From the NCBI RefSeq assembly GCF_056746865.1, contig NZ_CM163382.1: 64,000 bases of DNA. The stretch is one strand, 5' to 3'. Below are positions 52,011-52,201 of the stretch, piece by piece (position 1 is the stretch's first letter; each line of letters starts with the position of its first letter). Made by a program: the position numbers and the translations under genes. The notes beneath the pieces are model-generated. The model searched no databases and was not told where the DNA came from. It saw nothing but the letters and a program-made list of their open reading frames with translations.

Positions 52011-52186
52011 AGCGCACCGCAAAGTTAAGAAACCGAATATTGGGTTTAGTCTTGTTTCATAATTGTTGCAATGAAACGCGGTGAAACATTGACTGAAACG
52101 TTAACTGAAACGCATATTTGCGGATTACTTCATGACTTTATTTATAACAAATTGAAATTAAACATTTAATTTTATTCGATCAATTG

Positions 52187-52201
52187 TGGCACACCCCTTG
52201 C
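52187..52201 (+). promoter_or_regulatory. sigma-54 (-24/-12) promoter of prpBCDE
   Basis: tggcac-accccttgc with the GG and GC dinucleotides 12 bp apart, 47 bp upstream of the prpB ATG; upstream repeated ctgaaacg motifs (52090..52120) are candidate activator sites. Confidence 0.6.

Follow-up and report, generated by a model that had tools for sequence, protein, structure and literature searches.

The closest described relative of the locus analysed here is the prpR-prpBCDE control region of Salmonella enterica LT2, which was reportedly worked out by Horswill and Escalante-Semerena in 1997 and by Palacios and Escalante-Semerena in 2000 and 2004. The corresponding promoter of Escherichia coli K-12, PprpB, is said to have been built into the pPro expression vectors by Lee and Keasling and by Lee, Newman and Keasling, both in 2005. 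In Salmonella, expression of prpBCDE depends on rpoN (Palacios 2000, as cited in PMC4987338 and PMC5566544) and requires IHF together with sigma-54 (Palacios 2000, as cited in PMC5566544). It is 45-fold higher in the wild type than in an rpoN deletion, and the Salmonella homologue of the promoter element described below, TGGCATAGCCTTTGC, is occupied by sigma-54 (PMC3844500). According to a secondary source, the activator PrpR occupies an enhancer-like element that lies upstream of the promoter, and from there reaches the polymerase by looping. The enhancer consensus in Salmonella is CGTTTCATGAAACG (Palacios and Escalante-Semerena 2004, as tabulated in PMC4987338), and secondary citations credit the direct binding of PrpR, or the loss of induction on mutation, to Palacios 2004 for Salmonella and to Lee 2005 for E. 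coli.

Here we analysed a window of 64,000 nucleotides of E. coli chromosome (64 kb; contig NZ_CM163382.1 of assembly GCF_056746865.1), in which prpR and prpB diverge from a spacer of 238 bp with 33% G+C (52011-52248). Positions 51900-52400 are 100% identical to several complete E. coli chromosomes, including that of strain 118UI, and of 5426 complete E. coli genomes 5219 contain the prpR/prpB region, with both genes annotated under these names. The annotated copy reads yahO, prpR (-), then prpB, prpC, prpD and prpE (+). We are highly confident that the region is the known sigma-54 promoter of E. coli prpBCDE, whose genes serve the breakdown of propionate through the 2-methylcitrate cycle, together with an upstream array of PrpR half-sites, whose elements are listed in Table 1.

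Table 1. Elements of the prpR-prpB region. Positions are those of the window; relative positions are counted from the predicted transcription start.
Feature	Position	Strand	Remarks
prpR	50424-52010	-	528 aa; ATG annotated at 52010; RefSeq annotation of identical E. coli locus
PrpR enhancer site 1 (half-sites 1 and 2)	52054-52077		GTTTCAT-N10-ATGAAAC; about -159 to -136
Half-site 3	52082-52087	+	TGAAACa; about -131 to -126
Half-site 4, first ctgaaacg	52093-52100	+	TGAAAC at 52094-52099; about -119 to -114
Half-site 5, second ctgaaacg	52105-52112	+	TGAAAC at 52106-52111; about -107 to -102
A+T-rich looping spacer, enhancer to promoter	52113-52186		holds candidate IHF site
Candidate IHF site	52145-52157	-	TTTCAATTTGTTA; one mismatch to WATCAANNNNTTR; about -68 to -56
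Sigma-54 -24/-12 element	52187-52201	+	TGGCAC-N5-TTGC, TGGCACACCCCTTGC; GG 52188-52189, GC 52200-52201
Predicted start (about 52213) and 36-nt 5' leader	52213-52248	+	start 12 nt after the -12 C; rule from PMC4591121
Shine-Dalgarno	52238-52242	+	AAGGA, in the prpB leader
prpB	52249-53139	+	2-methylisocitrate lyase, first gene of prpBCDE; RefSeq annotation

The two genes are what the first-pass annotation, made from the letters alone, had taken them to be. The downstream gene is prpB by its RefSeq annotation and by Pfam matches of its product to PEP_mutase (6e-45) and ICL, and PrpR has the architecture of a sigma-54 activator, with PrpR_N (8e-52), Sigma54_activat (1.5e-65), AAA_lid_14 and HTH_8 (1e-10) domains and a GAFTGS loop at residue 301. 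The same A-to-S variant of the loop has been noted for E. coli PrpR (PMC3162934). The divergent prpR, with its AAA+ Sigma54_activat domain and GAFTGA-type loop, thus provides a cognate activator for a sigma-54 promoter. Enhancers of this kind are familiar from the NorR sites at norV and the NtrC sites at glnAp2, where likewise several activator sites lie about 100-160 bp upstream of a -24/-12 element, looping is assisted by IHF and the AAA+ activator carries a C-terminal HTH_8 domain. In contrast to NorR and NtrC, PrpR uses the half-site TGAAAC, a sensory PrpR_N domain rather than a GAF or receiver domain, and the loop GAFTGS rather than GAFTGA. Two further observations concern the flanking genes. 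First, yahN (LysE-family transporter; about 49230-49901 of the window) contains an internal stop and is classed as a pseudogene in the annotation of the identical strain 118UI, and this part of the window holds just a 165-aa open reading frame (49404-49901). Second, the 532 bp between prpB and prpC (53140-53671) are filled by a tandem REP-type array (53161-53632; 5.1 copies of a 93-bp unit, 96% matches), four copies of which score above the Rfam gathering score for naRNA4 (RF02564), the two end copies being partial.

By scanning the whole window for TGGCAC-N5-TTGC, we found a single match, on the correct strand and starting 62 nt ahead of the prpB ATG, in which the GG and GC dinucleotides are correctly oriented and exactly 10 bp apart (TGGCACACCCCTTGCT, 52187-52202, +). 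Taken by itself this match is weak evidence: with 0.27 matches expected in 64 kb and at least one arising in 23 of 100 shuffles, it lacks significance over that length, and such a frequency would suit a mere chance similarity. It is the location that marks the match as non-random, since it lies upstream of prpB, on the right strand, beside the gene of a sigma-54 activator, and is conserved at 78 of the 80 prpB loci described below. The near-consensus -24/-12 element that the first-pass annotation had placed upstream of prpB is therefore borne out; the 17-mer GTGGCACACCCCTTGCT at 52186-52202 is letter for letter the motif of sigma-54 ChIP-seq peak OS01 of E. coli MG1655, which has a fold-above-threshold score of 17 and prpB as its downstream gene (PMC4591121, Table 1). 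In vitro, the reconstituted RpoN holoenzyme also gave a binding peak in the prpR/prpB spacer by gSELEX (PMC8743547).

For OS01, the start was predicted 19 bp past the motif centre and 36 bp ahead of prpB (PMC4591121). The same rule applied to the window predicts transcription to begin at about 52213, likewise 36 nt before the ATG at 52249. EcoCyc listed the E. coli prpB promoter as "predicted" (as cited in PMC4591121), and in the accessible literature we found no mapped transcription start for E. coli prpB. A sigma-70 scan of the spacer returned one weak promoter-like site (52089-52118, 9 of 12 matches), and shuffled sequences give as much. We found no terminator in the prpR-prpB spacer, and neither this spacer nor the leader gave a match to any Rfam family.

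Upstream of the promoter, the two copies of ctgaaacg lie 75-94 bp from the T of TGGCAC and 89-108 bp from the -12 C, in agreement with the 70 to 110 bp given by the first-pass annotation. The repeat unit is the hexamer TGAAAC/GTTTCA, of which five copies are found within 58 bp (52054-52111): GTTTCA at 52054, then TGAAAC at 52072, 52082, 52094 and 52106, with spacings of 18, 10, 12 and 12. With 42 such hexamers on both strands of the window, this is the densest cluster, and when 64 kb were simulated 500 times with a first-order Markov model, the number per 60-bp span reached 3 and never exceeded it (0/500). The motif ctgaaacg carries TGAAACG, that is, one half of the palindromic consensus CGTTTCATGAAACG. 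No intact 14-mer is found in the spacer, which comes closest to it at 52099-52112 (three mismatches) and holds the half-site TGAAAC(G/A) five times. Thus the earlier view of ctgaaacg as a candidate enhancer site holds insofar as the motifs are half-sites of the PrpR consensus, but there are five copies and not two. Likewise, the range first proposed (52080-52201) takes in the promoter and half-sites 3-5, whereas the enhancer begins at 52054, 26 bp further left, and its best-conserved part, site 1 at 52054-52077, had been left out. Site 1 is a perfect 7-nt inverted repeat, GTTTCAT-N10-ATGAAAC, found exactly in 25 loci of Escherichia, Citrobacter, Kluyvera, Pluralibacter and Salmonella.

The left half-site of the catabolite repressor/activator Cra (FruR), TGAA(A/T)C, is well conserved, and the ctgaaacg motifs could be read as Cra operators, in place of PrpR sites or in addition to them. 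One-mismatch matches to the Cra consensus RSTGAAWCSNTHHW fall at 52092-52105 and 52104-52117, exactly on both motifs. However, the window as a whole shows no excess of such matches (19 observed, 14.3 expected), and other enteric genera read ctgacacg at the second motif. The half-site array also extends to beta-proteobacteria and goes together with the sigma-54 promoter of prpB, and our literature search found no paper linking Cra/FruR with prpB regulation. We consider a role of Cra here highly improbable, the resemblance arising because Cra and PrpR share the TGAAAC half-site. PrpR remains our reading of the array.

By scanning species-representative genomes for PrpB, we collected 80 loci from gamma-proteobacteria (Escherichia, Citrobacter, Kluyvera, Salmonella, Pluralibacter, Shimwellia, Pseudocitrobacter, Photorhabdus, Xenorhabdus, Providencia and Morganella) and beta-proteobacteria (including Janthinobacterium, Massilia and Noviherbaspirillum). 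At 78 of the 80, TGG(C/T)A(C/T)-N5-TTGC lies at most about 205 nt upstream of prpB, in every case with hexamers further upstream. The two loci that lack the promoter (L080 and L081, from a Pseudomonas and a beta-proteobacterial MAG) have neither hexamers nor a PrpR-like gene. In the region from -200 to -70 relative to the -24 element, hexamer density is 28.3 per kb, compared with 0.70 per kb elsewhere in the same loci (40-fold), and at least two half-sites fall in this 70-200 bp zone at 77 of the 78 loci. The flanking preference over the 78 loci, (A/T)TGAAAC(A/G), agrees with the consensus CGTTTCATGAAACG.

The arrangement of the half-sites is also regular. Among 79 distinct prpB upstream regions, the spacings of adjacent hexamers peak sharply at 6-7, 11-12, 17-18 and 21-22 bp. 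Those of 6-7 and 17-18 bp are GTTTCA followed by TGAAAC, the 17-18 bp inverted pair being present in 55 of the 79 arrays, and those of 11-12 and 21-22 bp are same-orientation pairs. Across these regions, the GTTTCA orientation is distal and the TGAAAC orientation proximal. The spacings fit a lattice with a period of about one helical turn, and so do the 18, 10, 12 and 12 bp of E. coli.

Since site 1 is just 44-67 bp from the prpR ATG, a protein bound there would overlap the prpR promoter or leader, and we considered that the hexamer cluster might mainly serve the divergent prpR promoter, as a CRP site or a sigma-70 autoregulatory operator, rather than act as an enhancer of prpB. A single CRP site in the spacer, overlapping the PrpR operator, has indeed been reported to control both promoters (PMC9452892; PMC3105977). 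Against this, the CRP core TGTGA-N6-TCACA, allowing up to 3 mismatches, has no match within 52030-52190, in agreement with the absence of prpR/prpB from the targets recovered by CRP SELEX-chip (PMC3105977). The sole CRP-like match nearby, with three mismatches, lies over the prpR start codon (52003-52018), and we regard it as a chance match.

Fourteen loci (Xenorhabdus kozodoii, L022, and 13 from Janthinobacterium, among them L037, L038, L042-L044, L049, L051, L052, L055, L056 and L058; L022 and L037 were inspected) keep both the promoter and the half-site array with no prpR homologue within 3 kb upstream. The array therefore follows prpB and not prpR, and adjacency of prpR is not required. 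In these genomes PrpR would have to be encoded elsewhere. A primary role at the prpR promoter thus seems to us quite improbable. A dual role of the array, as enhancer and in prpR autoregulation, is possible and compatible with the main reading, a PrpR enhancer of prpB. As judged by eye from the translations, the open reading frame upstream of prpB in L037 resembles an MBL-fold hydrolase, and that in L022 an isochorismate synthase.

In an alignment of 11 enteric genomes, four footprints stand out: site 1 (TGTTTCAT..A.TGTTGCAATGAAAC), nearly invariant; a TGAAACG block (TGAAACG-TA-CTGA-ACGC), which holds the first ctgaaacg; the -24/-12 element; and a conserved leader. The TGAAACG of half-site 4 is invariant in all 11 genomes. 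It is the right half of a Salmonella-type palindrome and aligns with the right half of cGTTTCATGAAACg, which is contiguous in Citrobacter, S. enterica subsp. arizonae and Pluralibacter. E. coli is without the left half of cGTTTCATGAAACg and instead has an extra direct copy at 52082. This half-site 3 is invariant in eight E. coli strains, reads tgaaat in E. albertii, and is degenerate (GGAAC/GAAAC) in other genera. Half-site 5, with a hexamer that is invariant in Escherichia, differs by one substitution from the conserved ctgacacg with which it aligns in Citrobacter, Salmonella, Kluyvera and Pluralibacter; the perfect second ctgaaacg is therefore specific to Escherichia. That PrpR contacts half-sites in E. 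coli is read from secondary citations and from the comparative evidence, and each of the five is a putative contact.

Compared with the reported Salmonella system, the general layout is the same. Salmonella, like E. coli, has a divergent prpR, a sigma-54 -24/-12 element 62-64 nt before prpB, a distal GTTTCAT-N10-ATGAAAC, a proximal TGAAACGTTA(A/G)CTGA block and an A+T-rich spacer. Three differences were found. First, where S. enterica subsp. arizonae and Citrobacter carry the contiguous palindrome, E. coli has direct half-site repeats (TGAAACattgacTGAAACgttaacTGAAACg). Second, the distance from the last half-site to TGGCA is 81 bp in E. coli but 104 bp in Citrobacter and 118 bp in Salmonella, that is, 23-37 bp shorter in E. 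coli. Third, the -24 element is TGGCAC in the window and in K-12, in contrast to TGGCAT in Salmonella. K-12 PprpB itself is the same locus: its spacer is 96.6% identical to that of the window, and the five half-sites and the sigma-54 17-mer are identical. None of the eight substitutions between the two is at a motif position, seven of them lying in the A+T-rich stretch that separates the enhancer from the -24 element and one between half-sites 3 and 4.

The same pattern holds within the species. For this we aligned the window with six strains spanning the range of identities and with a divergent strain from the genome scan (eight E. coli sequences in all), and added E. albertii. In E. coli, the 30 half-site columns, those of site 1 included, and the 9 columns of the sigma-54 core are all constant, compared with 36 of 199 other spacer columns that vary (0/39 motif columns; Fisher p = 9e-4). 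The variable columns are concentrated in the A+T-rich spacer and in the interval separating half-sites 3 and 4. Adding E. albertii brings one extra motif change, in half-site 3, and the sigma-54 core positions are invariant in Escherichia. As a separate observation, the variability of the prpR-prpB spacer is unusually high for E. coli: of 5220 records, 1411 are just 90-95% identical to the window. Nine spacer matches in the E. coli genome collection are on plasmids and not on chromosomes.

These data also bear on whether the -24/-12 match and the repeats are both chance similarities in an A+T-rich spacer. Besides the shuffling result for the promoter pattern, that view could appeal to the 7-mer TGAAACG, which is not over-represented across the window (15 observed, 10.9 expected). 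It has to face, however, the positional coincidence with prpB, the ChIP-seq peak on an identical sequence, a clustering beyond all 500 simulations, the conservation at 78 loci out of 80, drawn from two classes of proteobacteria, and the invariance of the motifs inside a polymorphic E. coli spacer. Chance is effectively refuted by these observations, and we give it next to no weight. The promoter with its PrpR enhancer is already known, well-conserved and ordinary biology.

We also searched the A+T-rich spacer for IHF sites. Allowing one mismatch to WATCAANNNNTTR, a scan matched at 52145-52157 (-), 52156-52168 (+) and 52159-52171 (-), matches of a kind that is common by chance (61 expected in the window). 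The block TAACAAATTGAAATTAAACATTTAATTTTATT at these matches is conserved within Escherichia, with variable flanks, but is not conserved in sequence across genera, so that the IHF site at 52145-52157 is one that we infer.

Several other elements were noted in the spacer and the leader. The prpB leader contains a block, TAACAAGTTGATAACA (52209-52237), that is conserved in Escherichia, Kluyvera and Citrobacter, shows one substitution in Pluralibacter, and shares 79% identity with the IHF-like block further upstream (52144-52162). A perfect IHF consensus is found in the leader at 52222-52234 (-), about +10 to +22, and an inverted repeat, TTATCAAC-N11-GTTGATAA, at 52209-52216 and 52228-52235. In two unrelated lineages the prpB leader carries an additional PrpR-type half-site past the -12 element. 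In Xenorhabdus/Photorhabdus (e.g. L022, L026 and L041) this is a GTTTCA 29 nt ahead of the prpB ATG, and in Janthinobacterium a TGAAAC 40 nt ahead of it; E. coli has none there. On the other side of the array, between the prpR start codon (52010) and site 1, lies a near-perfect palindrome, AAACCGAATATTGGGTTT (52030-52047), conserved in Escherichia, Citrobacter and Kluyvera and degenerate in Salmonella. This palindrome might serve as an operator or belong to the promoter or leader of prpR.

We propose the following mechanism, which combines the motif positions, their clustering, their conservation and co-occurrence with the promoter in 78 loci and the domain architecture of PrpR, as obtained here, with what the literature provides: that sigma-54 occupies this very sequence in K-12, that rpoN, prpR and IHF are required, that 2-methylcitrate acts as co-activator, and what the enhancer consensus is in Salmonella. 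Sigma-54 RNA polymerase would sit on the -24/-12 element as a closed complex, while PrpR, via its C-terminal Fis-type helix-turn-helix, would bind the five TGAAAC half-sites, which lie about 100-160 bp upstream of the predicted start and on roughly one face of the helix. In the presence of 2-methylcitrate, made from propionate via PrpE and PrpC, PrpR would assemble into its active AAA+ oligomer. The A+T-rich spacer, probably bent by IHF, would loop PrpR onto the polymerase, and ATP hydrolysis would open the promoter, with prpBCDE then transcribed from about 52213.

A further reading of the array is tentative, and on balance we hold it to be unlikely: PrpR would read a helically phased lattice of TGAAAC half-sites instead of simple dimer palindromes and, jointly with this, the Escherichia array would have been remodelled to a "- + + + +" arrangement on one face, without the contiguous palindrome and with a shorter loop. 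In pPro vectors the output of the E. coli promoter is roughly three-fold weaker than that of the Salmonella promoter (PMC5566544), a difference that such remodelling might underlie. The spacing rules of the half-sites and the Escherichia-specific proximal rearrangement are small comparative details, of which the helically phased spacing may be mildly new. As a sigma-54 system PprpB/PrpR is textbook material, and it is in wide use as a propionate-inducible part for expression and biosensors. The map obtained for this strain (half-sites, candidate IHF site, -24/-12 element and predicted start) shows which positions tolerate change, and is useful for trimming or re-engineering the promoter.
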